Source: Candidatus Portnoybacteria bacterium (GTDB lineage: Bacteria > Patescibacteriota > Minisyncoccia > Portnoybacterales > GWB1-42-6). Taken from it: DNA of 64,000 bases. The notes beneath the pieces were generated by a model. The model searched no databases. It was not told where the DNA came from and saw nothing but the letters and a program-made list of their open reading frames with translations. Where the stretch lies: the NCBI GenBank assembly GCA_028688325.1, contig JAQTYI010000002.1, forward strand, positions 9,395-73,394, written 5' to 3'. Position numbers and translations under genes: made by a program. Within the stretch, counting starts at the first letter, position 1, and the number at the start of each line of letters is the position of its first letter. Shown piece after piece: positions 8,065 through 36,618 of the stretch.

Positions 8065-8781
8065 CTAACCCCGGCAAACCAAATAAGAAGCCACCATCGC
8101 CGCGGTCTCGGCGCGCAAAGTCAGTTTTCCCAGCGAAATTAGCTTAACCCCCGCTCCTCTGGCCGCGCCGATTTCCTCTCCGCTCCATCCGCCTTCCGGG
8201 CCGATAAAAATTCCGACTTGCTCTTTTTCCTGTTGCACCAAATTATTGATGTCAGACATCAATAATTTGGTGCCGGACGCATCAAATAATATGTTTGCCG
8301 TGTTTTCTTTTGCGCCAGCCAGCGCATCGTTGAAACTTATTGCTTCCCGCAAAACCGGAATTATTCCCCGGCCGGATTGTTCCGCCGCTTCTTTGATGAT
8401 TTTTTTCAGCCGGTCATATTTCAAACCTGTTTTAACCGTGCATCGCGATATCACGGGCACTATCTCGCTTACGCCGGCTTCCACGGCCTTCTGGACAACC
8501 AATTCAAAATTTTCCCGCTTTAAAACCGCGCAATACAAGATTACTTGCCTTTCCGGTTCATTCTCATTTTCTTTTACTTCCAAGATTTCCACCTCAACAA
8601 AATCTTTGCCGTATTGTGCAATTTTCGCTGACGCCTCTTTTCCTTGTCCGTTGACTAAAATAATTTCTTCACCTGCGCCCAGGCGCAAAACATTTTTCAC
8701 CTGATGCAAAAAATCCCCGTCGGAAATTCGCAGGGTTTTTTGCGCAAGATCAAAATCGCCGAAGAATCTGTTCAATCTCAT
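8065..8781 (-). CDS. rsmE: 16S rRNA m3U1498 methyltransferase RsmE
   Basis: 238 aa with an RsmE PUA-like N-terminus and a C-terminal SPOUT fold (GPEGGWSGEEI). Confidence 0.85.
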   Translation of the reverse strand: MRLNRFFGDFDLAQKTLRISDGDFLHQVKNVLRLGAGEEIILVNGQGKEASAKIAQYGKDFVEVEILEVKENENEPERQVILYCAVLKRENFELVVQKAVEAGVSEIVPVISRCTVKTGLKYDRLKKIIKEAAEQSGRGIIPVLREAISFNDALAGAKENTANILFDASGTKLLMSDINNLVQQEKEQVGIFIGPEGGWSGEEIGAARGAGVKLISLGKLTLRAETAAMVASYLVCRG

Positions 8782-8819: not shown

Positions 8820-9848
8820 TTACAAGTATTTTTTATTTATTTCCTTCACAATATCATATCCGTTGCAATGCTTCAACATTCCCGAATATGACTGTAAACT
8901 CTGGCCAAACGACTCCTCCAATATTAATCCGTCCTGCCAATTATTATATTTGTTTTTAATATTTTTAAACATTCTCCTTCTGGTTTTAGTCCGCAAAATT
9001 CTATAATCAGGAAAATTGACCAAACCCAAAAAATCCACCCCCGAAGCCAATGTTTTAATAAAAATTTTATCCGGATGCAATTCTAATTTTAGCCCTCGTC
9101 GCAAAAATTGCCGTATCGGCTCAATTTGTTGCTCCAAGCGTTTTTTGTCATCAGAAAAAAACACGAAATCGTCCGCGTACCGTATATATCGTTTATCTTT
9201 CAATTTATGCTTGGCAAACTGATCAAATTTATTCATGTAAATATTCACAAATAATTGCGAGGTGAGATTGCCAAGCGGCAAACCAATGCTCATCCCCTTT
9301 TCTGATGGAAAACTATCTACCACTCCTTCCAGCAGCCAAATAATATTCTCATCCGGAATATACTCTTTTAATATTTTGACTAAAATTTTGTGGTCAATAT
9401 TGGCAAAGAATTTTCTGATGTCACATTTCAAAACCCAGCATGTTTTTGTGTTATTTTTACTCACCTTCCAGACAAATTCCCGAAACCTGTTAACGACTTT
9501 ATGTGTTCCTTTCTTCAGTCGGCACGAATATGAATCGACAATAAAGGTTTTATCAAAAAACGGATATAAAATTCTGTAAATCGCGTGGTGAAGCAATCGG
9601 TCACGGACGCCCGCCTTATGAATGTTCCTGGGCTTAGGATCATTGATTTTAAACGCTTGATACCCGCCGTGCTTATAGGTATGATTAATAAGGTCGTTGT
9701 GGAGCGAAAAAATATTGTCCATTAAACGCATAGAAAATTCTTGAACATCTTTTCGCTGTTTTTTACCCTTCAAAAATTCCTTCCATGCTTCCAGCAAATT
9801 TTCAATGTTAATTATATCTTCAAATTTATGGACCAATTGAATTTTCAT
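8820..9848 (-). CDS. DGR-type reverse transcriptase
   Basis: 342-aa RT with YADD catalytic motif (IRYADDFVFF). DGR-diagnostic motif 4 reads IGLPLGNLTSQLFVNIYMN. No maturase or endonuclease domains. Confidence 0.85.
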   Translation of the reverse strand: MKIQLVHKFEDIINIENLLEAWKEFLKGKKQRKDVQEFSMRLMDNIFSLHNDLINHTYKHGGYQAFKINDPKPRNIHKAGVRDRLLHHAIYRILYPFFDKTFIVDSYSCRLKKGTHKVVNRFREFVWKVSKNNTKTCWVLKCDIRKFFANIDHKILVKILKEYIPDENIIWLLEGVVDSFPSEKGMSIGLPLGNLTSQLFVNIYMNKFDQFAKHKLKDKRYIRYADDFVFFSDDKKRLEQQIEPIRQFLRRGLKLELHPDKIFIKTLASGVDFLGLVNFPDYRILRTKTRRRMFKNIKNKYNNWQDGLILEESFGQSLQSYSGMLKHCNGYDIVKEINKKYL

Positions 9849-9942
9849 AAAAATTCGGCTTTTAACGCCCCCCCCCCAGACCCTTCCTTCACTGCTTCAG
9901 AAAGTAAAAATTCTTTACCTTTTATGGTACGGTTATTATCTG

Positions 9943-10227
9943 GTGTTGCCAAAAACCCATCGCCACACTTTGGGACAAAAAATAGATAATTTATTGGTAG
10001 AAATTATTGAAGCAATTGCCATTGCTATTTTCTTGAAACCCGAGGAAAAAATATCGTATGTCAGAATAGCAATCAGAAAAACTGACACTTTAAAAATTTT
10101 TCTAATGATACTTTGGGAAACTAAATCTTTGGATAATAAAAAATACATTGCTCTTTCGGAAAAATTAAACGAGGTTGGCAGAATGCTCGGCGGTTGGAAC
10201 GGACAACTTTCAAAACCCATAAAATAA
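9943..10227 (+). CDS. avd: Avd-like accessory variability determinant (four-helix-bundle, 23S-rRNA-IVS protein family)
   Basis: 94 aa that aligns with the C-terminal three helices of the in-window paralog at 52721-53083 (FLRIT/YVRIA; LETQIIIAKDL/LKIFLMILWETKSL; EVQKML/EVGRML). It appears N-terminally short and lies on the strand opposite the RT. Confidence 0.55.
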   Translation: MLPKTHRHTLGQKIDNLLVEIIEAIAIAIFLKPEEKISYVRIAIRKTDTLKIFLMILWETKSLDNKKYIALSEKLNEVGRMLGGWNGQLSKPIK

Positions 10228-10266
10228 AACTCTCCCGGCAAGCAGCCAGGAGAGAAATGAAAAGAG

Positions 10267-10397
10267 TTGCGCAACCCGCAGACGGATTGTCGGCGTTCCA
10301 ATCGTTGTCAAGCCAGTTGTAGTTCCAGTTCCACTCGCCATCGTCGTTGCGATAGAGATAGAGCACATTGCGGTTGCCGTCCGGGTTGCGAAGAATT
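10267..10397 (-). repeat. DGR template repeat (TR)
   Basis: 131 bp matching 10799-10929 except at 15 positions. All 15 are T on the plus strand, i.e. A on the coding minus strand, in this copy. Confidence 0.85.
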
Positions 10398-10787
10398 GTA
10401 TAGAATGCCTTCTATTCCACCACCCATTGAATTCTCTTTGGGTTGAATTTTATTCGACATCTCATTCAGCAGAATGACCTACTGGGTTAATGCCATAGCA
10501 TCTTACACCAAGTATCTTCATTTTTTGAAGTTTCTGCATACACCACTCTATCCGAAACCATAGTCGCGGATATTCTCAATGTATGGATACTGGTTTCGAC
10601 TGCGAGAAACCTTAATCGCTCGCACATTCATCTACTTCCATTCATATTTTAGCATAAAAAAAGACCCCATGCATTTTGTTGCAGGAGGTCTGGAAATGTA
10701 TTCGCACATTTCGAAAGCGTTGCGGAAAAATTTCCGCGCTCCAAGGACAAAGAACAAAGGATTCAAAAGATCCCAGATTCAAATGCC

Positions 10788-11474
10788 CTATGACTGACTT
10801 GCGCAACCCGCAGACGGACCGTCGGCGTTCCAAGCGATGCCAAGCCAGTAGTAGCGCCAGTGCCACTCGCCATCGTCGTAGCGATAGAGACAGAGCACAT
10901 CGCGGTCGCCGCCCGGGTAGCGAAGAATTTGGCCGAAGAAATCCAGGTAGGAGATTTTGAAATTCCGATAAAACCACTCGAGAATACTGTTTTCCTTGTT
11001 GGCCTGGTAATCAAGCCATAAAGCGAGGAAAACATTGCCTCCGAAGCGGATGAAGTCGGGTTTTTCTTCTTTCAGGCGGCGGAGCTTTTCTTCGCCCTTG
11101 ATTGACTTCTCGTCTGCCCGAAGGCAAGTTTCAAAAACAAACCTGGCAAGCTCAATTTCTGAGAGAGCCAATGAACGAGGATCAATGTCTTCCTCGCCAG
11201 TTAACCCGTCGCCGTCAATCGGACCTTTCCAGGTTGCCCAACCCTTGCCGAGAAATTCGGCGGGATTGAAGGATTGGGTCAGAACGGATTTCGGATCGCC
11301 GATGATGAAACGGCCGCCATTCTTAAGGAAAGCGGTGAAACGCTTGCCGAATTCCTCCGGTGAAAGATTGATAACATTTTTTTGAAGACGATCTCCATCA
11401 ATTTCGTCCCAACTAACTTGCGTCCCGACACGGGCCGCGACCTCCAGAGCTTGACCGCGAGAAACTGTTTTCAT
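10788..11474 (-). CDS. DGR target protein with C-terminal C-type-lectin/FGE-like variable domain
   Basis: The VR occupies the last ~44 codons. Likely start MKTVSRGQ at 11474, with GGAGAA 5 nt upstream. The annotated longer ORF begins at 11540. Confidence 0.7.
10799..10929 (-). repeat. DGR variable repeat (VR) within the target-gene 3' end
   Basis: It differs from the TR only where the TR has A (A-to-N changes). It encodes …[35 protein letters not shown]. Confidence 0.85.
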
Positions 11475-11764
11475 GGCTATTCTCCTTTTCTGAATTTGCG
11501 CTTTAACCATATTTAATGGCTCTACGCATGTTTGGCTCACCCCTCATCCCGCCCCATGCGGAACTCCAAGATTGCCGTTATTTGCTTTAAATACGCTGTT
11601 TTTAATGTACTTTATTAATATACACCTTAATAAGATTCTTGTCAAGTCGAGGTGCGGATTATACACAAATAAAACACCCCGTAAAATGCAGGGTATTTTA
11701 TTTGAGATTGAGCCTACAATAAGCGACTCTATCTCATTAAATTATCGTGGACGAAATTTACATA

Positions 11765-22273: not shown

Positions 22274-22819
22274 GTGGGCGGCAATACCTGGTACCAAGGC
22301 AAACACGAGCCGATTGTTAGCAAAGATTTATTTGACCTGGTGCAGGATAGAATAACCAGCCAGACATCAAGAGTTAATAATCAAGAATTCGCCTTTACCA
22401 AACTGATGAAGTGCGGACTTTGCGGCTCGGGCATTACGGCAGATGAAAAAATTAAGAAACAGCTAAACGGCAATATCCACCGCTATGTTTATTACGGCTG
22501 CACCCGATTCAACGATAAAGAATGCAAATGCGGCTATATCCGGGAAGACGACTTAATCAAGCAGCTTGAAAATCTGATAGACCAGATGTCCTTGGACGAG
22601 ATTGGCATTAAGCAAAAAATTAAAGCTGAAGTTGAGCGGCATAAAAAATTCCAAGCCGGGATGCTCGGAATAAAATCGATAATAAAAGTGGCTGATATAG
22701 ATATACGCAACTACGCCAAATACATTCTTAGAGACGGCACAAATCTTGAAAAAAGAGAGCTGATATCTTGTTTCAAAAGCAAGGTTGTAATAAAAAACAA
22801 ACTAGTTTCTTTAGAATAA
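22274..22819 (+). pseudogene. Large serine recombinase remnant (C-terminal zinc-ribbon/coiled-coil part only)
   Basis: Contains the CGLCGS…YYGC zinc ribbon and recombinase-domain residues, but lacks the N-terminal resolvase catalytic domain. Confidence 0.7.
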
Positions 22820-22821
22820 AC

Positions 22822-22849
22822 TAAAATCACCCGAATTCGGGTGATTTTA
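22822..22849. terminator. Bidirectional Rho-independent terminator between convergent genes
   Basis: Perfect 12-bp stem taaaatcacccg/cgggtgatttta with aatt loop. Confidence 0.75.
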
Positions 22850-22874
22850 GTTTATGACATCCAACACCTTTTAT

Positions 22875-23417
22875 CTACTCAGTCTCTAATAATATTTGAA
22901 CTAATGGATTTAAGGTTTTATATCCATGCTCCACAAAAAGACGATCTCTTCTGTCCTCTGGATTCTTTGCTCCATGAAAAAGATTATTACGAATTGAATA
23001 CCAAAACTCGACCATATTTTCCCAGTCTTCTAAATTATAAATATATCCTTTTACTTTATTCTTATCGTCTATAGCATGACCTCCAAGATCCGAATGAGAA
23101 CAATTCCACCATTTTATCTCTTCCACATTACCACTGTTACCGCTTACATTACCAAGTCGTGCAATTTTTAGTTCCTTTTTTATTTCTTCCCAAGAAAGAT
23201 GCAAATCTACATTATTTAGAACTTTATTTAAATATTTTATCTTGATACTTTCGTCCTGCTTTAAAAATTGGATAGCGGCTCTATCGTTTTGAGAATTGGT
23301 GAATTTTTTCTTTTTCAAAAAAGCTATGAACGCCAAATATTCAAAAACAAACTTAGAAAAGAAATCGTCATCTGAGGCCTTTACGTGCCAATTTATAATT
23401 AATTGATTATAGTTCAT
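22875..23417 (-). CDS. HEPN-domain protein (putative RNase effector/toxin)
   Basis: 180 aa, alpha-helical, with the Rx4H motif RNNLFHG near the C-terminus. It overlaps the upstream small ORF by 1 nt. Confidence 0.5.
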   Translation of the reverse strand: MNYNQLIINWHVKASDDDFFSKFVFEYLAFIAFLKKKKFTNSQNDRAAIQFLKQDESIKIKYLNKVLNNVDLHLSWEEIKKELKIARLGNVSGNSGNVEEIKWWNCSHSDLGGHAIDDKNKVKGYIYNLEDWENMVEFWYSIRNNLFHGAKNPEDRRDRLFVEHGYKTLNPLVQILLETE

Positions 23418-23418
23418 A

Positions 23419-23649
23419 TTAAGTTTTTAATTTCCAACGATAGGTTCCTGAGTTTTTTATCAGCCCTCTTTTACAGGGTTTTCCATAAAAGAAGTACTGT
23501 CCAAAAGCATTGCCAAATGGCCAATTTTTAATCTCTATTTTCTCCACTACAGCGTAGTGTTTAGCTTCGTTCCAAGAATCCAATATAACAATAAATGAAA
23601 TTTTTTCTCCGTTTTCGCGCCATAATTCAAAGATATTCTTTTTATCCAT
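23419..23649 (-). CDS. Small hypothetical protein (possible HEPN partner/antitoxin)
   Basis: 76-aa ORF immediately upstream of, and overlapping, the HEPN gene. Confidence 0.35.
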   Translation of the reverse strand: MDKKNIFELWRENGEKISFIVILDSWNEAKHYAVVEKIEIKNWPFGNAFGQYFFYGKPCKRGLIKNSGTYRWKLKT

Positions 23650-23711
23650 TATTTTTTAACATTTACTTCGGTTGTTATAAACATATAAATACTAAAAATC
23701 TATTTAAGGCC

Positions 23712-25460
23712 CTAAAATCTAAACCCTAACAGACCACCATTTTCTTTAGCGTCTGTAAAGATAATCCTTATAGCCTTTTTAAATTCAACCCCAAATTCTT
23801 CGCTAAATTCTGAATAAGGAACATCGTCAGAGTTTAATGTGCAAATATACTGGGTCTTCGTTTCGCTGGCTATCTTTGCTGCAGACTCCAAGGCTTTTGC
23901 TGTTTGCCTTTCGTCAACACCATCAAAAATAGTGCTATCATGGATTAAGAATCTGGGACTCGGCTTCTTCTGTCTAAATTCTAAAACAGTAATATCATAA
24001 GTAAAAACTTTCATATAACTAATCCCTTGACTTCCCGCCCTCAATATCTCTACATTAAATTTATAGCCGGCATTAGTTATCGAGATCAAGAAATTACCTG
24101 GCTGAGAATATAAAAACTCTGAATTTTTATTAAATAATTTTATAATTTTTTCAATCTGGTCCTCTCTTTCTTCTTTATCTTGTCTAGCTTTTTTAATTAA
24201 GTCTTCTTTTTTAATTTTAATATTGCTAACGCCTTCTTCAATTTTTTTTATATCTCTGACTCTGTTATTTTTTTCCTCCAAAGACTGTCTTATCACTGAG
24301 AGGTGATTTTGTAATTTTGTATATTCTTCTAAGGCGCCATGGGTCTGCAAAATCATTAATAACTCAGCTCGCTTTGCGGATAATTCCTCTGTCTTCACTT
24401 TTTGCTCAGCCATTTCTCGTTGTATTCTTTGAACCTCTGATAATAGATAATCTTTCCTATTCTTTATAACTTTAATATGGAAATTTAGAACATCTTCTAC
24501 TCGCTTCTTTATTGCATCCGAAAATACAAACCTAGCTTCCGCATAAAGTTGTTCGACCTTTTGCAAGGAAATGTCTTTTTCTTCAATAAAACTCTCTTGG
24601 TATTTATCTAAAATATTTTTATTAATCGCAGAAGCATTAATGACATTATGGATTTGCTCTGTTAAAAGATCGGCTTCTTGCTGAATTTTATAATACTGTG
24701 GATGAACATTAAATGAATTGAGCTCTTCCTCATTCGCTTCAACCTCACTCAATAAACGAACTTTTTCTGCTTCTAGCTCGCTCAAAGAGCCCACCAAGCT
24801 ATCAAGCAATCCCAGCCCTAATGCTTTTTTTAAATTTTCTATTATACCCAATTCATCCTTCAATACCTGGAACTGACTAGCATACTCATCATTCATACCC
24901 AACAAAAAAGAATTATTTACTTGAACATCCCATTCTTTTTGCTGCGGATAATGTCTAAAGGGATCCTGAAAGCCGCCTAAACCTCTTCTGACTGCATAGG
25001 ATATCAGACTTCTAAATGTTGGCGAATATTTCCGCTCTTCAATTACCGGAAGACCATACATAAAAAAACCTAAGACTATTGTCCAGTCCTTAATAGGCAA
25101 AGTGCGTTTTCCGTCTCTTATCCCTACCTCTGGTTCTATGGGCCAACCAGAAAAATTACCCTCCAGCGTTACCCTCGAAAATTCTTTCGTATTTCTAGAA
25201 ACCGTTATAATTTTCCCATCAAGCTCAAGATCCAAAATAAAAGTCCATCCTTCAAGTTCTTTTCTACGAACACCAACATTTGGACTCGTACTTGAGCCAA
25301 GACAAAAATGTATGATTTCAATTAGAAAGCTTTTACCTAAACCATTTCTAGAATCTTTATCAGAGGAGTCGTTAGTACGCTCAGCGAGCACGACATTAAA
25401 ACCAGGGGAAAAATCAACTCGTTTGAATAAAGGATTTGTACTCCTAACCGATTTGATCAT
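23712..25460 (-). CDS. ABC/SMC-like coiled-coil ATPase (Septu PtuA / Lamassu LmuB / ABC-3C-like)
   Basis: N-terminal P-loop with insert (FNVVLAE-x12-NGLGKS). ~350 aa of coiled coil. C-terminal signature-like RAGSQGIS and Walker B/D-loop PRFLIHDSTIFDGVDE. Confidence 0.6.
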   Translation of the reverse strand: MIKSVRSTNPLFKRVDFSPGFNVVLAERTNDSSDKDSRNGLGKSFLIEIIHFCLGSSTSPNVGVRRKELEGWTFILDLELDGKIITVSRNTKEFSRVTLEGNFSGWPIEPEVGIRDGKRTLPIKDWTIVLGFFMYGLPVIEERKYSPTFRSLISYAVRRGLGGFQDPFRHYPQQKEWDVQVNNSFLLGMNDEYASQFQVLKDELGIIENLKKALGLGLLDSLVGSLSELEAEKVRLLSEVEANEEELNSFNVHPQYYKIQQEADLLTEQIHNVINASAINKNILDKYQESFIEEKDISLQKVEQLYAEARFVFSDAIKKRVEDVLNFHIKVIKNRKDYLLSEVQRIQREMAEQKVKTEELSAKRAELLMILQTHGALEEYTKLQNHLSVIRQSLEEKNNRVRDIKKIEEGVSNIKIKKEDLIKKARQDKEEREDQIEKIIKLFNKNSEFLYSQPGNFLISITNAGYKFNVEILRAGSQGISYMKVFTYDITVLEFRQKKPSPRFLIHDSTIFDGVDERQTAKALESAAKIASETKTQYICTLNSDDVPYSEFSEEFGVEFKKAIRIIFTDAKENGGLLGFRF

Positions 25461-25680
25461 GCTTTAATTTTATTAGATTGTTTTCAATTGTTATCAAGTC
25501 CAAAAGATGAAGTAAATCAAGAGTTAAAACAAATTTCTCAAAATTATTTACTTCTGGAATTTTATTATTTTTTTCCCACAAGGAAGAAACGGAACACGGT
25601 CTTCTAATTTCACCAAGCAAAACAGAGCCGACCCCAATAAGAGAATTAGATAATTTTATATTTTTATCAGGTAAAATCAT
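25444..25680 (-). CDS. Small hypothetical protein (middle component of ATPase operon)
   Basis: 78 aa. It overlaps both neighbours (17 nt and 4 nt). Confidence 0.4.
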   Translation of the reverse strand: MILPDKNIKLSNSLIGVGSVLLGEIRRPCSVSSLWEKNNKIPEVNNFEKFVLTLDLLHLLDLITIENNLIKLKHDQIG

Positions 25681-26408
25681 TTTTCAAATATATCACACTG
25701 CTCAAAAAAATAAATTAAAACAGATAAGCCAGCTGCTTGCTTTAAAATGTCTGCTGAATTAGATGAAGCGAAATCGGAAAGAATGTAAAATAGGCCGTCA
25801 CTCGAATTTCCTTTTTCTCTAAGCTCGCGATATTTTTCTATAAAACCGCGCTTCAGCCTTTCGGCAAAATCAGTGTCGGGGTGAGAATTTAAATATCTTT
25901 TAACTAAAGTTACCTTACTTAGTCCCATTTTTATTCGTTCCACAACATCCAGAGACAGGTCATTCTTTTTTATCTTTTCTTGCGGGGTTATTAAATCTAG
26001 TGTGCTTACTTCAAAATCATATTGCTTAACCAAATATTTTATCGTATCCTCTAACTCGCTAAAAGTAATCTGGGGCAAATTCATAATCAATTTCTTCTTT
26101 ACCCAGTCTTCGTGGTCTAGCTTTATCTTTTTTAATATATCTACCGTGTAAGCAATAGGATCTTTATCAATTTCTGTATGACAAGAAGAACACAACAAAA
26201 TATGATTGGCATAACAAGCCCTCTCTTTTTCTGTCATAGATTTATTGTATCTTGCAGAACCAGGCTCCTTGCCCTCAATGTGTGCGTCCTCTCCTTTGTG
26301 CTGGACATGACTTTTTACGCTCGTATGTGTAACTTGCCCTTTACACTTATTGCATATGCCAGCACTTCTCCCCCAAAGAATAATTTTTTCTGCCGGAGAA
26401 ATTTTCAT
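25677..26408 (-). CDS. HNH nuclease domain protein
   Basis: N-terminal CNKCKG…HIEGKEP…YANHILLCSSCH HNH zinc-finger nuclease motif, plus a ~150-aa helical C-terminal domain. Confidence 0.6.
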   Translation of the reverse strand: MKISPAEKIILWGRSAGICNKCKGQVTHTSVKSHVQHKGEDAHIEGKEPGSARYNKSMTEKERACYANHILLCSSCHTEIDKDPIAYTVDILKKIKLDHEDWVKKKLIMNLPQITFSELEDTIKYLVKQYDFEVSTLDLITPQEKIKKNDLSLDVVERIKMGLSKVTLVKRYLNSHPDTDFAERLKRGFIEKYRELREKGNSSDGLFYILSDFASSNSADILKQAAGLSVLIYFFEQCDIFEK

Positions 26409-26738
26409 AATCTTAATTATTTATAATATTAACACTTTCTAAAAAAACAGAACAGATAGAAACTGTTAATATTCCATCAAAAATGGCCTTTGAAAATACA
26501 AATAATGAAAAGAGTCGAATAACTTTTCTATTAATTAAGTTGCACTCAAAAACGGCGCAATCTAAATTGCGCCGTTTAAAAGCGATCTTTGACCCAAGCT
26601 AAATTTTTGGACATTTATTGTCATTTAATTTAACCCCCCTTCTGAATCGCCTCTGACGATACAGAATCTAAGAATCAAATTCTTGACATAACCCAGAAAT
26701 AAATCTGTTAAACCGTCTCGGTCGGTCTCACATGAGTG

Positions 26739-26809
26739 TTGGGGAGGAGGGATTCGAACCCCCGATGACGGATTCAGAGTCCGTTGCCTTACCGCTTGGC
26801 TACTCCCCA
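26739..26809 (-). tRNA. tRNA-Gln (anticodon CUG)
   Basis: 7-bp acceptor TGGGGAG/CTCCCCA with U1 as in E. coli tRNA-Gln. D-arm GCCAAGCGGTAAGGC. Anticodon stem ACGGA/TCCGT with loop CTCTGAA. T-arm GGGGGTTCGAATCCCTC. CCA is not encoded. Confidence 0.85.
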
Positions 26810-26894
26810 GAAATAGCTTATAGCTGATAGCTTTTAGCTAATGGAAAAACTCAATTCTTGCGCGGATCGCTGCACTCGGAATGACAAAGTTTTT

Positions 26895-33666: not shown

Positions 33667-36618
33667 TTATTTGTTTTCAAGGTGGCCCTGGTTAAAATCC
33701 GCCGCTATTTCCTTATCGGCGTTTTCCATATATTTATTGAAAAATTCTCCCACTGTCATATTTTTTACTCCCCCAATACCTTGCTTGCCAATGCTATTTC
33801 TCAAAAATTTGGCCATCTCGGCGTATTTTGTATAGTCGCTATAAGTCAAGCCGAGCCAGCTGGAACCGGGTAAATTTAACTGTGATAGTTTGGCTTCGTG
33901 CCAAAAACGGCTCAAGGCGTATTTATCCTCGTAGGCCTCCGGCGGTATGGCATCCAATATCTTACCCAGCGGCACTTTGGCTGCGGCCTTGAAGGTTTCT
34001 TCGGTTAAAATATTCGGTTCAACCAGGCGGGAAACTATTTTTTTTATCTTTTCATCCGCCGGGCCCGCATTGTCCAGCGCTCCATTCAATATATGCTCTT
34101 TTGCGGTCAAATCGGGAACACCCGAACTCGCCGCCCTTAAAAAGGTTGCCTTATCGCTCAAATGCATATGCCCTTGTCCGTCCAATTCCACAAAAGCGCC
34201 CCGGCCAAGATGGCGCATGGCCTTGGCATAACCCTCGGCATTCGCCGTAAAACCGTGTTTAACCAAATTTTCCGCCATACCCGGCTTAGCCAATTCTCCC
34301 TCCGCGCTTTTTAACCACAGCTGATGCGCGCGAGTTCCGGCCCATTTATTGATATCTGTTTTACCGTCCCAGCCAAAGGCCTTGGCCACATCCGGCTTAG
34401 CCCTGAAATTATCAATTATCGCGCCTTCCGGACCTCGGCTGCCGATTTTCAAATTAAAAATTTCTTCGCCGGCTTTGGCGCCGCCCGGCGAAGGCAGAAT
34501 TTCCGGATTCACAGCATCGCCCCCGAGAATCGGCATTCCCGATTTTGGCACATTGCCCGGCAAATGGCTCTTCATTTCGCCGTACCCCGTCTCTCTCAAT
34601 GCTTCTTTTTCTAAATCAAAACCGCCGGTCAAAGGGTGTTTTGCAAAATCGATCGTTTTTTCAGCCGCAGCTTTTATTTTTTCAATCATTTCTTGGCCGA
34701 ATCCAGAATTGATTCCATTGCGCACTGCTTGAGCCAACGCACCGCTGCCGACCAGTGCGCCCAGCGTGCCGGCCAAAACGAACCGCCTGTTTTTTTCGCT
34801 TTCCTTGGCTTTTATCAACTCAAACAGCTTATCGTCCAGTTCGCCATTCTGATTTTTTAGCGCTTCCAAAAACTTCCCGCCAAATTCCTTGCTTAATTTT
34901 TTCTCCGCGCTTTTTTCCTGAGATCTTTTAATGAGCTGCTCGGCGCCGGCTGTCATCATTGAACCGCCAAGCACGCGCAAAGCTGCCTGCCCCGCAAAAG
35001 CCGCCGAGACAATCGCCGTGCTGCCGACCAAACCGCCCGCCAAACCCCCAACAAATAAACCGGCCGAAACCGCCATCTTATATTTAACCGGCAGTTTTTT
35101 ATACCAATCCGTGAATTCCTCGGCTTTTTCATTCATATACCGGCGCGCCGCGCCCATTTGCTCAATTTGCTTGTCGGACTTCAAAGAGTCAATTTTTGCC
35201 GCCTCGCGCAAAGTCACGGCCAGCAAGATATCCTTGGCGTATTTTTCCAGTTCTTCCTTGATGTTTTCGTCCGACTTTCCAGCGGCTTTCAATTCCGCCG
35301 TTTTCCAGGCGATTTCTCCGTCGCGATATGCTTTTAAAGACCCCTTTAAACTTTCTTGCGCCTTTGAAAAATTTTCCCGCGCCTGGGCGGCCTCCGCTTG
35401 TGCGCCGCCGATGTTTTCCTGCCTGACCGGCACTCGGGTTTTGTCGCCTTCAAAACTCGTAAAGCCGCCGACAATGAATTCCTTGATTCTGGCCCGCAAG
35501 CCAGTTAACTTATTTTCTTCTTTTTCCGCCCTTTCTTTGGCCAGCTCCGCCGCCACGAAATTCTCACGCGCTTTATCCAGCGCGGCTTCGGCTTGTTCTT
35601 TTTCGGCTTTTCTGTTGGCTTCTTGGACCTTTTCGAGGCCGTATATTTCTTTTTCTTCGTCTTTGCCGTAGTTTTTGCGCTCGCCCAGAGGATGCTCTTC
35701 CGGCTCTATTTCCCTTTCCGCTGACAACCCCGTTTCGTCCGCCGCATAAGGCCGAGCTGTTGGATGCATCTTGTCTTCCAATATCTCATTTATCTCTTCT
35801 TGCGTCTTATCTTCTGTTATCCGAGAATCAGTTTTTTTCTCGCGTCCCTCCGAAGCGTTTTCTTTTTTCTCCTGCGCTTTTCGCTCCTCTTTTTCGTTTT
35901 CTTTTTTGCCTCTTTCATCCGCTTTATATTTTTCCTTCATTTTTTCCGCTATGCCGCTCACTTCGCCGCTATGAATTACGCCGCGCAATTCACTTTCCGT
36001 CCGGGCGATTAAATCATAAAGTTCTTTGGGCGCATCTTTTTTATTGTTCAAAAAATCGTAAAGTTGCTTAAAGGCCCCTTCCAGCCGATTCACCAGTTCT
36101 TTTTTCTTGTCCGGCAATATAATTTTTTCTTTTTTGCCCTCCTTGGTTTTTTCGCCGCCCGCCTCGTTTTTCGCCGCTTCCAGCGCATCCGCTTCCCTGA
36201 CATCGCGGAGTTTTTTGGTTTTTTTCTTCAACAGAGAAATTTCCCCTTTAAACTCGCCCGGGTTCTCTGTTTTTTCTTTTTTGTCGACAAAGTTGGGGTC
36301 AAAAAAAATCTCGTTTCTTTTTCGCTCGAGCGCTTGATAATAATTTTCCAGTCCGGACAATAAATCCTCGGTCCGCTCGCCATTGGCATAACGATCCAAA
36401 AGAGCGCTGTTGTCCCTTACAAAATCAAACAGCTCCTTCTCCTGCGCCAGAGAGATAAATTTATTTTTTAAAGCCATCTCGGCTTTAAATTCCAGTTTAT
36501 TGCCGTTTAATCTGTCTATCTTGCCCACCATGTCTTCCACTTTATTGTCCAAATCTCTCATTTCTTCCGCCGACAAGCCGCTTTTTTGCTCACCGGAAAT
36601 ATATTTGCTTCCGCTCAT
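33667..36618 (-). CDS. Large (983 aa) K/E-rich coiled-coil membrane-anchored protein
   Basis: N-terminal ~500 aa highly charged coiled coil. Central Gly/Ala-rich TM segments. C-terminal ~350 aa globular region. Confidence 0.5.
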   Translation of the reverse strand: MSGSKYISGEQKSGLSAEEMRDLDNKVEDMVGKIDRLNGNKLEFKAEMALKNKFISLAQEKELFDFVRDNSALLDRYANGERTEDLLSGLENYYQALERKRNEIFFDPNFVDKKEKTENPGEFKGEISLLKKKTKKLRDVREADALEAAKNEAGGEKTKEGKKEKIILPDKKKELVNRLEGAFKQLYDFLNNKKDAPKELYDLIARTESELRGVIHSGEVSGIAEKMKEKYKADERGKKENEKEERKAQEKKENASEGREKKTDSRITEDKTQEEINEILEDKMHPTARPYAADETGLSAEREIEPEEHPLGERKNYGKDEEKEIYGLEKVQEANRKAEKEQAEAALDKARENFVAAELAKERAEKEENKLTGLRARIKEFIVGGFTSFEGDKTRVPVRQENIGGAQAEAAQARENFSKAQESLKGSLKAYRDGEIAWKTAELKAAGKSDENIKEELEKYAKDILLAVTLREAAKIDSLKSDKQIEQMGAARRYMNEKAEEFTDWYKKLPVKYKMAVSAGLFVGGLAGGLVGSTAIVSAAFAGQAALRVLGGSMMTAGAEQLIKRSQEKSAEKKLSKEFGGKFLEALKNQNGELDDKLFELIKAKESEKNRRFVLAGTLGALVGSGALAQAVRNGINSGFGQEMIEKIKAAAEKTIDFAKHPLTGGFDLEKEALRETGYGEMKSHLPGNVPKSGMPILGGDAVNPEILPSPGGAKAGEEIFNLKIGSRGPEGAIIDNFRAKPDVAKAFGWDGKTDINKWAGTRAHQLWLKSAEGELAKPGMAENLVKHGFTANAEGYAKAMRHLGRGAFVELDGQGHMHLSDKATFLRAASSGVPDLTAKEHILNGALDNAGPADEKIKKIVSRLVEPNILTEETFKAAAKVPLGKILDAIPPEAYEDKYALSRFWHEAKLSQLNLPGSSWLGLTYSDYTKYAEMAKFLRNSIGKQGIGGVKNMTVGEFFNKYMENADKEIAADFNQGHLENK

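Follow-up and report, generated by a model that had tools for sequence, protein, structure and literature searches.

The 64-kb stretch of DNA from a Candidatus Portnoybacteria genome analysed here (the window) carries a diversity-generating retroelement (DGR), the features of which are listed in Table 1. The cassette runs from a target gene, which ends in the variable repeat (VR), through the template repeat (TR) and an accessory avd gene on the opposite strand to a reverse transcriptase (RT). An earlier note, made from the sequence alone, had described this as a complete DGR. All of the parts are present, but completeness may not extend to present activity, since avd is out of frame at a run of ten cytosines. 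The avd gene itself, which lies between TR and RT and matches the Pfam family bAvd, had been overlooked in that parts list, and the 400 nt separating VR from TR are no empty spacer: a terminator-like hairpin and a promoter-like element lie there, together with a structured leader RNA that is conserved.

Table 1. Features of the DGR locus, ordered by position in the window.
Feature	Position	Strand	Remarks
DGR reverse transcriptase	8820..9848	-	342 aa, intact; LGNLTSQ (residue 192), YADD (residue 224)
avd accessory gene	9828..10227	+	Antisense to TR and RT, between them; Pfam bAvd
Poly-C tract (C10)	9868..9877	+	Inside 5' end of avd; candidate slipped-strand ON/OFF switch
Terminator-like hairpin and U-run	10219..10254	-	End of TR transcript, facing avd 3' end; predicted terminator
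Post-TR motif CTCTTTTCATTTCTCTCC	10249..10266	-	Pyrimidine-rich, conserved; 10255-10263 predicted to pair with leader
Template repeat (TR)	10267..10397	-	131 nt; its 34 adenines belong mainly to AAC/GAC/TAC codons when read in the VR frame
Structured leader RNA	10398..10643	-	About 245 nt, upstream of TR; 5' domain 10506-10643
Leader segment AAAUGAAGA	10515-10523	-	Predicted to pair with post-TR motif
Extended -10-like element TGCTAAAAT	10646..10654	-	Putative promoter of TR transcript
Terminator-like hairpin and T7 run	10656..10690	-	After target gene; read from sequence
Long imperfect hairpin	10745..10788	-	Directly 3' of VR; candidate target-recognition element
Target (variable protein) gene	10788..11474	-	228 aa; AGGAG ribosome-binding site before ATG
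Variable repeat (VR)	10799..10929	-	Target residues 183-226; 15 mismatches to TR, all at TR adenines
Promoter-like site TTGACA-17-TATATT	11617..11645	-	Upstream of target gene; 11/12 consensus matches, consensus match only

Reverse transcriptase, repeats and target

The RT matches Pfam RVT_1 (6.8e-26). Its best match in the PDB is 8ub7_A (328 aa; E 1.4e-38 over residues 10-327), which we take to be the bRT of Bordetella phage BPP-1, and the I/LGxLTSQ and YxDD motifs are common to both proteins. The best-scoring chains of non-DGR RTs, named by their depositors 'retron-type RT' or group II intron RT, gave values of 6e-16 to about 1e-15. NCBIfam holds no DGR RT model, and its group II model scored 142 bits, below the cutoff of 300. 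These comparisons support the Bordetella DGR enzyme as the closest relative. The proposal that a 342-aa protein with YADD and LGNLTSQ motifs is a DGR-type RT, and not one of the group II or retron enzymes, is thus borne out, as is its placement on the same strand as TR and about 420 bp away; it starts 418 nt downstream of TR.

Ungapped alignment of TR with VR on the minus strand gives exactly 15 mismatches over 131 nt, in agreement with the earlier tally of two collinear segments that differ at 15 positions, each an adenine in TR. The probability that all 15 would fall on adenines is C(34,15)/C(131,15) = 9.7e-11. Opposite the mismatched adenines VR carries G (8 positions), T (4) or C (3), and in the target frame the mismatches lie at codon position 1 (8) or 2 (7) and never at position 3. 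An independent repeat search recovers the same pair (D1, 134 nt, 88%). As had been supposed, the first copy is non-coding, lying inside a conserved structured RNA, and VR forms the 3' end of the 228-aa open reading frame. The pattern extends to relatives: across five related loci 72 of 75 mismatches are at TR adenines (P = 1e-39), and within the target family the entropy is 2.70 bits at TR-adenine codons against 0.70 at the other VR codons (P = 2e-8). At the level of the family, therefore, these sequences make a clear case for diversification.

As regards an IMH/IMH* distinction at the 3' ends of VR and TR, homology between the two stops at a GC-rich GCGGGTTGCGCAA in both copies, which diverge beyond it. 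In the hairpin directly 3' of VR, 68% of cells are paired compared with 21-52% in slid controls and compensatory changes are few, which points weakly to a target-recognition element like that known from the Bordetella DGR. When the 64-kb window was searched for TR with N in place of all its adenines, at a tolerance of three mismatches, only TR and VR themselves were matched, with none expected by chance, and remote targets or further VR copies in the window were accordingly discarded.

The target protein is laid out as a helical N-terminal part followed by a C-terminal α/β domain that ends in VR. No signal peptide is evident, and the AlphaFold model has a pLDDT of 92. The C-type-lectin/FGE-like scaffold put forward in the earlier note is a tentative reading of the fold, and any likeness to known DGR variable proteins is equally tentative. 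There are 210 homologues of about 226 aa in Patescibacteria; scanning the genome collection with this single protein gave five loci. Sequence searches of Pfam, NCBIfam and the PDB yielded no match to the family, and assignment of the target to a sequence family was dropped. An equivalent hairpin followed by a T-run is found at the same place after the target gene in related loci.

The element is flanked by housekeeping genes, namely those for an RsmE-like RNA methyltransferase, SIMPL and a GTPase. These flanking genes are syntenic in a related locus (L013), where the counterpart of the GTPase has BipA/TypA-type domains, and no relatives of the window Avd were found in IMG/VR. On these grounds an association with phage was rejected, and the locus is supported as a genuine DGR of the Candidatus Portnoybacteria genome. 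The B3 type is defined by a TR-(avd)-RT core in which avd is encoded on the reverse strand, and it makes up 90% of CPR DGRs (Wu et al., 2018; PMC5758913). The positions and strands of TR, avd and RT in Table 1 show exactly this arrangement, and divergent orientation of RT and avd is found in 74 of 75 related loci. Gene order, orientation and host group (Patescibacteria) are the same as in the B3 elements of CPR/DPANN, as are a target of unknown family and an unclassified VR type. There is no architectural difference from these elements, and the window locus is a member of the group.

A structured RNA enclosing the template repeat

From the arrangement of signals around TR, an RNA of about 420 nt would start at the extended -10-like element just after the terminator of the target gene and would comprise a structured leader of some 245 nt, the 131-nt TR, a pyrimidine-rich motif and a terminator hairpin. 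Its predicted ends on the minus strand are near 10640 and 10220. The sequence TGnTAnAAT is kept at the -10-like position in ten related loci. For the leader, RNAalifold on nine sequences gave 66 pairs, 22 of them with compensatory changes. The leader model R1 matched 81 loci, once each, among the 90 sequences searched; 98.3% of cells are paired and 32 of 36 pairs are compensatory, values reached by none of 500 shuffles. Covariation in the leader RNA is very strong. The window was also searched with Rfam 15, which includes the RT-1 to RT-19 motifs of Weinberg et al. (2017). At gathering thresholds a single tRNA was found in the whole window and nothing else, and in the leader/TR region (10150-10850) there was no match even at E ≤ 1.

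The motif that follows TR is present in all lineages irrespective of the TR sequence. Folding of the whole transcript predicts a long-range helix between this motif and a segment of the leader, and cognate leader/post-TR duplexes have a mean energy of -7.65 kcal/mol compared with -6.68 kcal/mol for non-cognate combinations, a difference reached in 0 of 5000 permutations. A first model, in which a GAAGA sequence of the leader paired with the start of TR, was superseded by this longer pairing, which has covariation support. With the leader and the post-TR motif paired, TR would sit in a closed loop next to its own 3' end. In the hairpin of the putative terminator, 5 of 7 pairs show compensatory changes in 31 lineages. 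We infer from these features where the TR transcript ends, and that the RNA has a role in priming: by analogy with Bordetella, a complex of RT and Avd would begin cDNA synthesis at the 3' end of TR and put in wrong bases opposite adenines of the template. VR would then be replaced by this cDNA, which would rewrite up to 21 codons of the C-terminal domain of the target.

Comparison with the prototype, the DGR of Bordetella phage BPP-1 (mtd-avd-TR-brt), brings out both common ground and differences. The RTs belong to the same clade (8ub7 is matched over its full length), both elements have Avd as a four-helix-bundle accessory protein, the target genes end in a VR that differs from its TR at adenines only, the homology ends in a GC-rich stretch, and structured RNA flanks TR. 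However, avd in the window sits between TR and RT in reverse orientation, and the main structured RNA is 5' of TR, whereas that of BPP-1 is a spacer of about 140 nt on the 3' side. In the window, moreover, a terminator ahead of RT appears to close the TR transcript, and no sequence signature of Mtd, FGE or a lectin can be recognised in the target. The element itself is part of a chromosome and not of a phage, and there is a hypermutable repeat in its avd. Retron ncRNAs (msr-msd with a1/a2 inverted repeats) also have an RT template enclosed by a long-range flanking helix that adjoins the expected cDNA start site. This likeness is one of analogy only, as the window RT is of a different clade, there is no sequence similarity and no msDNA product is expected.

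A variable repeat tract at the 5' end of avd

The product of avd matches Pfam bAvd (PF22296) with 45.6 bits against a cutoff of 40 (1.1e-11), and NCBIfam DivGenRetAVD with 57 bits, below the cutoff of 80. Its ATG, at 9828, overlaps the first seven codons of RT. The C10 tract interrupts the reading frame; nine cytosines would restore a 132-aa Avd. Among Avd homologues, 85 of 103 read through PP(P) from the same Met, and those without a tract are continuous from that Met. The NCBI annotation of the gene (P0124) is a product of 105 aa that needs a non-canonical start. The second Avd paralogue found in this genome, P0185, appears truncated. A start downstream of the tract was considered and rejected: the TTG chosen by a gene caller in one lineage (L014) is not conserved, the two 'LL' codons after the tract are represented by 8-10 distinct codons across lineages, mostly non-start Leu codons (CTA, CTT, CTC, TTA), and there is no start codon conserved across lineages between the tract and the Avd motif.

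On the RT strand the tract is a G10 run, 19 nt upstream of the RT ATG, and it is the only C/G run of at least 8 in the 64-kb window. A repeat of variable length is present at the kept position in 56 of about 60 lineages. Where it is poly-C its length ranges from 7 to 12 and it always stands 10-30 nt before the conserved Avd motif; in L046, L052, L056, L069 and L072 it is replaced by (GA)21, (CA)n(GA)n or (CA)8. A frame opened by an ATG enters the tract in 54 of the 56 lineages, compared with 41% of shuffles and 59% of mock positions, and in the codons directly 3' of the tract the entropy is near 0 at position 2 and 1.3-1.9 at position 3. These sequence signatures place the tract clearly within the avd coding sequence, so that Avd must be altered whenever the length changes by anything other than a multiple of three.

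Across the roughly 60 lineages avd is in frame in 14 and out of frame in 41. This in-frame share of about 25% is near the one third expected if length were unrelated to frame, and the ratio by itself shows no selection. Tract length differs within six groups of sibling loci. In five of these the flanks are 96-100% identical (most 99-100%), and the sixth, formed by the window and L013, is more diverged (96% and 85%). Three sets of near-identical siblings include both frame states (L017/L019, L073/L082/L087 and L060/L093). The Avd body of out-of-frame lineages nonetheless retains 86-95% identity with a coding-type pattern of substitution, a clear indication of purifying selection.

These properties recall the SSR contingency loci of Neisseria, Haemophilus, Campylobacter and Bordetella, in which poly-G or poly-C tracts are found in promoters or close to the 5' start of a coding sequence. 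As in avd, the start codon is closely followed by a homopolymer of 7-12, length is polymorphic between near-identical strains with the frame alternating in and out, and mono- and dinucleotide repeats are interchangeable at one site. In contrast to those loci, avd is the gene for a cofactor of targeted hypermutation and not a surface or restriction-modification gene, and its hosts are uncultivated Patescibacteria. We propose that avd would be read from the ATG overlapping the RT start, through the hypermutable repeat and on into the four-helix-bundle body, and that slippage of the repeat would shift the gene in and out of frame, so that tract length would control adenine mutagenesis as a heritable, stochastic ON/OFF state. 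With C10, which puts avd out of frame, the window element is probably silent at present. The VR is identical across all five available consensus assemblies (three Logan contigs and two NCBI accessions), and this agrees with the element being silent. Exact look-up of RT and of P0121 gave no second assembly of the RT/avd junction, and contigs with the exact target protein end before avd. We put the probability of the whole reading, that of a chromosomal B3-type DGR with a discrete structured TR RNA and an avd gene switched by slippage, at roughly 0.8.

Other readings of the tract and wider meaning

Length-dependent promoter tracts are familiar from the poly-G and poly-C repeats of Neisseria and Bordetella, and the avd tract might likewise act at the level of RNA or transcription, its length setting promoter spacing or the function of a 5'-UTR for RT or for both divergent genes. 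It is tightly placed relative to the RT ATG (median distance 16 nt, interquartile range 13-20) and could therefore act on RT expression instead of, or besides, avd. By eye, AT-rich -10-like sequences adjoin it on the RT strand at many loci, and the in-frame fraction near one third also agrees with such a role. However, the tract is clearly inside a coding sequence, preceded by an ATG and followed by a coding signature, and homologues that lack it are continuous; its distance to the RT start runs from -29 to +113 in some lineages while that to the Avd motif stays within its narrow range. We regard this reading as possible but on balance unlikely; effects on frame and on RT are in any case not mutually exclusive.

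Secondly, the tract could be a recoding site, at which ribosomal frameshifting on CCC-C or transcriptional slippage takes place. Every allele would then give some full-length Avd, and length would tune its level and not switch it off. A C-run reads CCC (Pro) in every frame, so that tRNA-Pro can re-pair after slipping, and ribosomes are known to stall on poly-proline. Although nominally out of frame, most lineages keep a conserved Avd; slippage of the ribosome or RNA polymerase might still yield Avd from 'OFF' alleles. Against recoding, the (CA)n, (GA)n and (CA)n(GA)n replacements fit slippage of DNA and not re-pairing of tRNA-Pro, lengths differ at the DNA level between near-identical loci, and a stimulatory element was not identified. 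We judge it improbable.

A decaying, inactive DGR, in which the avd frameshift is an ordinary homopolymer inactivation and the repeat has no regulatory role, would account for the broken frame in the window, the seemingly truncated paralogue, the invariant VR and the finding that in-frame lineages are no commoner than chance. It accords poorly with the purifying selection on the Avd body in out-of-frame lineages, with an intact RT, and with a TR/VR pair free of non-adenine mismatches, which argues for recent homing. Nor would random decay be expected to keep a tract at the same spot in some 56 lineages, with dinucleotide substitutes elsewhere, or to leave both frames among near-identical siblings. 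Decay is thus a quite doubtful explanation.

That the length differences are sequencing or assembly errors and all loci are truly in frame is highly improbable: C/G runs of 9-12 are error-prone and many contigs have low coverage, so that single-base lengths in these may be wrong, but in one lineage C7, with the frame off by 2, recurs in each of four separate assemblies (L004-L007), and within seven other sibling groups the lengths are exactly the same, which argues against random assembly noise. Offsets of +2 and -2 as well as dinucleotide repeats occur among the out-of-frame states, and the NCBI annotation of the source genome likewise lacks a normal avd start.

The reading we favour thus remains the one in which slippage of the repeat switches avd. 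Rewriting a useful protein without restraint is costly, and little is understood, to our knowledge, of the means by which DGR mutagenesis is held back or regulated. In the literature covered here, namely PMC5758913 and full-text searches but not Paul et al. (2017), the main paper on CPR DGRs, there was no mention of the avd tract or of the leader/trailer RNA, and we could not find a description of the slippery avd repeat or of the TR-enclosing folded RNA, for which about 60 related copies were compared; the only 'frameshift' passage in PMC5758913 concerns TR-VR indels. For the broader claim, that a large lineage of Patescibacteria DGRs uses the avd repeat as a heritable, stochastic master switch of targeted protein hypermutation, together with a hitherto undescribed structured RNA in which a helix of leader and trailer encloses TR and positions RT-Avd at its 3' end, we see the odds as about even.

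For annotation, genome pipelines mis-annotate avd in elements of this kind and the repeat probably breaks or confuses assemblies, while the leader/trailer RNA would be a new RNA family. It would also represent a second natural design for presenting a DGR template, to set beside the single well-studied system of Bordetella. If the model is correct, the repeat in avd would provide a simple heritable restraint for a very large group of uncultivated bacteria, in which a hypermutable switch would govern a hypermutator.

The retroelement and its adenine signature

The reading of this region as a diversity-generating retroelement (DGR), put forward in the earlier note, is correct. The template repeat (TR) and variable repeat (VR) aligned over 131 nt without gaps and, as claimed, differed at 15 positions. 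At every one (15/15) the TR carries A and the VR carries G (8), T (4) or C (3), for which P = 9.7e-11 given 34 adenines in the 131-nt TR. The same pair was recovered by an independent repeat search, and a pattern with every TR adenine replaced by N found no third TR copy in the 64-kb window. All of the differences fall at codon position 1 or 2 of the target gene, and the VR, described in the note as the C-terminal part of its 228-aa product, encodes residues 183-226.

Among five related loci, with one TR/VR pair each, 72/75 differences lie at TR adenines (P = 1e-39). In a 74-protein alignment, mean entropy was 2.70 bits at VR columns with A in the first or second position of the matching TR codon, against 0.70 bits at other VR columns and 1.39 bits in the rest of the protein (Mann-Whitney P = 2e-8). 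Since the window TR/VR pair lacks any non-adenine difference, its sequence suggests that homing has been recent in this DGR. The VR is the same in the five available assemblies.

The reverse transcriptase (RT; Pfam RVT_1, 6.8e-26) is of the DGR type. Of the solved structures, 8ub7_A (328 aa; entry name 'Reverse transcriptase'), which we take to be the Bordetella phage DGR RT, is by far the closest; the alignment covers the whole length at E 1.4e-38, compared with about 1e-15 for group II intron and retron RTs, and shares the motifs IG(S/N)LTSQ and Y(M/A)DD. The TR, VR, target and RT are as first listed, but that list overlooked the accessory gene avd, a four-helix-bundle gene that lies antisense between TR and RT. 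Its product scores 45.6 bits against Pfam bAvd (cutoff 40) and 57 bits against NCBIfam DivGenRetAVD, under the cutoff of 80. RT and avd are divergent in 74/75 related loci showing both genes. This layout, TR-(avd)-RT with a reverse-strand avd, corresponds to architecture B3 of Wu et al. (2018; PMC5758913). Judged as a DGR, the locus is unremarkable and belongs to the known CPR B3 type.

Features of the DGR cassette and of the rest of the window
Feature	Position	Strand	Remark
Inverted repeat	8235-8273		perfect, 19 nt, 1-nt spacer (GCACCAAATTATTGATGTC/GACATCAATAATTTGGTGC); within RsmE-like methyltransferase gene adjoining RT
RT	8820-9848	-	
avd	9828-10227	+	overlaps RT by 21 nt (9828-9848)
C10 run	9868-9877	+	sole C or G run of at least 8 in window
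Predicted terminator	10254-10230	-	terminator scan; coincides with post-TR hairpin
Post-TR motif	10249-10266	-	
TR	10397-10267	-	
Leader RNA	10398-10643	-	
Conserved TGnTAnAAT element	10646-10654	-	directly after terminator-like hairpin
Terminator-like hairpin after target gene	10656-10690	-	read from sequence
Target gene	10788-11474	-	
VR	10929-10799	-	
Low-GC island	22800-26810		34-37% GC vs ~46%; DUF2326 protein (23712-25460), protein with CTD10 of ABC-3C systems (25677-26408)
tRNA-Gln	26738-26809		adjoins low-GC island
983-aa ORF	33667-36618	-	no Pfam match; strand skew of the region unusually strong (GC skew -0.25, AT skew -0.27)
Second low-GC segment	49945-51602		36% GC; restriction-modification pair: EcoO109I-like type II restriction endonuclease, N6/N4 DNA methylase

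A repeat tract inside the avd reading frame

The listed avd ORF (9943-10227) starts at position 21 of the Avd profile models. Upstream of 9943 no stop interrupts its frame, which supplies the missing helix 1 but contains no start codon, and the ATG at 9828, the reverse complement of RT codon 7, opens MDQLNFHKNSAFNAPPP... in a frame other than that of the avd body. The two frames join at the C10 run; C9 in its place would give a single 132-aa Avd, and the C10 of this genome implies that avd is off. NCBI annotates a 105-aa protein, the start of which must be non-canonical and inside helix 1. Each of the RT and avd start codons is the reverse complement of the other's seventh codon (ATG...CAT on both strands), and the divergent arrangement with its 21-nt overlap is kept in many lineages.

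Nearly all of 80 further loci, fetched by a search with the Avd alignment, have a repeat at this site. It is mostly poly-C of 7 to 12; the other tracts are (GA)21 in L046, (CA)n(GA)n in L052 and L056, and (CA)8 in L069 and L072. The three codons 3' of the tract, encoding L-(L/P/I)-(P/S) ahead of a conserved LLQK, have entropies of 0.00, 0.91 and 0.00 at position 2 and of 1.3-1.9 at position 3. The LL codons are rejected as an avd start, being of many types and mostly Leu codons unable to initiate. The ATG-initiated frame enters the tract in 54/56 lineages (shuffles 22.7/56, maximum 33; mock positions 59%). Furthermore, 85/103 database Avd homologues read from Met (MxQLNFHKN...) through PP(P) into QLIPLLQK, and the tract-less homologues P0203, P0228, P0164 and P0200 are unbroken from the same Met. 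On these comparisons we conclude that the tract is coding and lies inside avd.

Tract length varies within six sibling groups. In five of these, flank identity is 96-100% (99-100% in most) and the lengths are 10/9, 10/11, 9/10/11, 12/9 and (CA)8/(CA)12; the sixth comprises the window and L013 (10/11), with more diverged flanks. In seven other sibling groups tract length is exactly equal; among them are the four assemblies L004-L007, which all carry an out-of-frame C7. Counted per lineage, 14 have avd in frame and 41 have it out of frame, while 3 lack an ATG and 2 lack a repeat. We regard the tract as a lineage-wide candidate phase-variation switch, well supported as a sequence feature, the function of which we infer. 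One main alternative is that it acts on RT expression: in most lineages the RT ATG is 13-20 nt away. Another is that Avd is rescued by translational or transcriptional slippage. The cassette may also simply be in decay, or the differing lengths may be assembly errors. In the full-text literature searched, which did not include Paul et al. (2017), no paper connected a repeat tract, phase variation or a frameshift of this sort with avd or DGRs.

The RNA around the template repeat

The ~245 nt from the TGnTAnAAT element to the TR are conserved above the level of the target protein and form a leader of several stems, with compensatory changes in 22/66 pairs from 9 sequences only. No Rfam 15 family matched the leader/TR region, even at E <= 1. 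A covariance model of the leader 5' domain found one match each in 81/90 sequences searched, always on the TR strand and regardless of target family. In the resulting alignment 98.3% of cells are paired, compared with 39-49% with slid partners, and 32/36 pairs show compensatory changes; 0/500 shuffles equalled any observed measure.

In all lineages the TR is followed by CGCAA-CTCTCTTCATTTCTCTCC, a hairpin (5/7 pairs compensatory) and a U-run. The terminator predicted here points towards the end of the avd gene, an arrangement that would account for how an antisense avd can lie between TR and RT. When the whole predicted transcript was folded, leader AAAUGAAGA (10523 to 10515) paired with post-TR UUUUCAUUU (10263 to 10255). 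Across 52 lineages cognate leader/trailer duplexes were stabler than non-cognate ones (-7.65 vs -6.68 kcal/mol; 0/5000 permutations), with clear compensations in L034, L054, L045, L046 and L055. Because of this pairing, the TR is modelled in a loop closed by leader and trailer beside its 3' end. This TR-enclosing structured RNA is new and lineage-wide, and well supported as a sequence feature; its function would be as proposed below.

Genomic setting and proposed mechanism

NCBI proteins MDD2753415.1 and MDD4982374.1 (Candidatus Portnoybacteria MAG, 789-kb contig) match the target exactly over their sequence. Logan contigs with the exact target gene (L001-L003; SRR22315507-9) are 2,662, 1,597 and 944 bp long and end before avd, which fits assembly breaks from the TR/VR repeat. 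Housekeeping genes flank the cassette. Synteny with L013, where the target is 82% identical, extends over the entire neighbourhood. In L004, another genome, the target is 85% identical; in L004-L007 (Avd 86% identical) the cassette lies among tRNA synthetase genes, whereas in the window and L013 it lies between SIMPL and RsmE-like genes. Given these different surroundings, the whole cassette has been relocated or transferred between Patescibacteria. No relative of the window Avd was found among IMG/VR viral contigs. The low-GC island at the tRNA gene resembles a conflict or defence island acquired by horizontal transfer.

The 788,852-bp Portnoybacteria contig also carries, outside the window, a second Avd paralogue (P0185, 80% identical), so the genome probably has a second DGR of this lineage. 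This Avd is annotated as 112 aa, starts MYIIWY... and looks N-terminally truncated, possibly also out of frame. Most related loci (58/80; L017-L096) share the RT/Avd/leader-RNA lineage but have a different target family, with TRs encoding other motifs, e.g. ...WLNAYYDNPDNRWNRDNGFAF...; core machinery and RNA are reused with exchangeable targets.

We propose that a TR RNA of ~420 nt would be made from its own promoter and terminator, and that its leader/trailer structure would recruit RT-Avd. Synthesis of cDNA would start at the TR 3' end with misincorporation at adenines, the VR would then be replaced, and slippage of the avd tract would control the whole process. The interest of the locus lies in this candidate avd switch and the new structured RNA.
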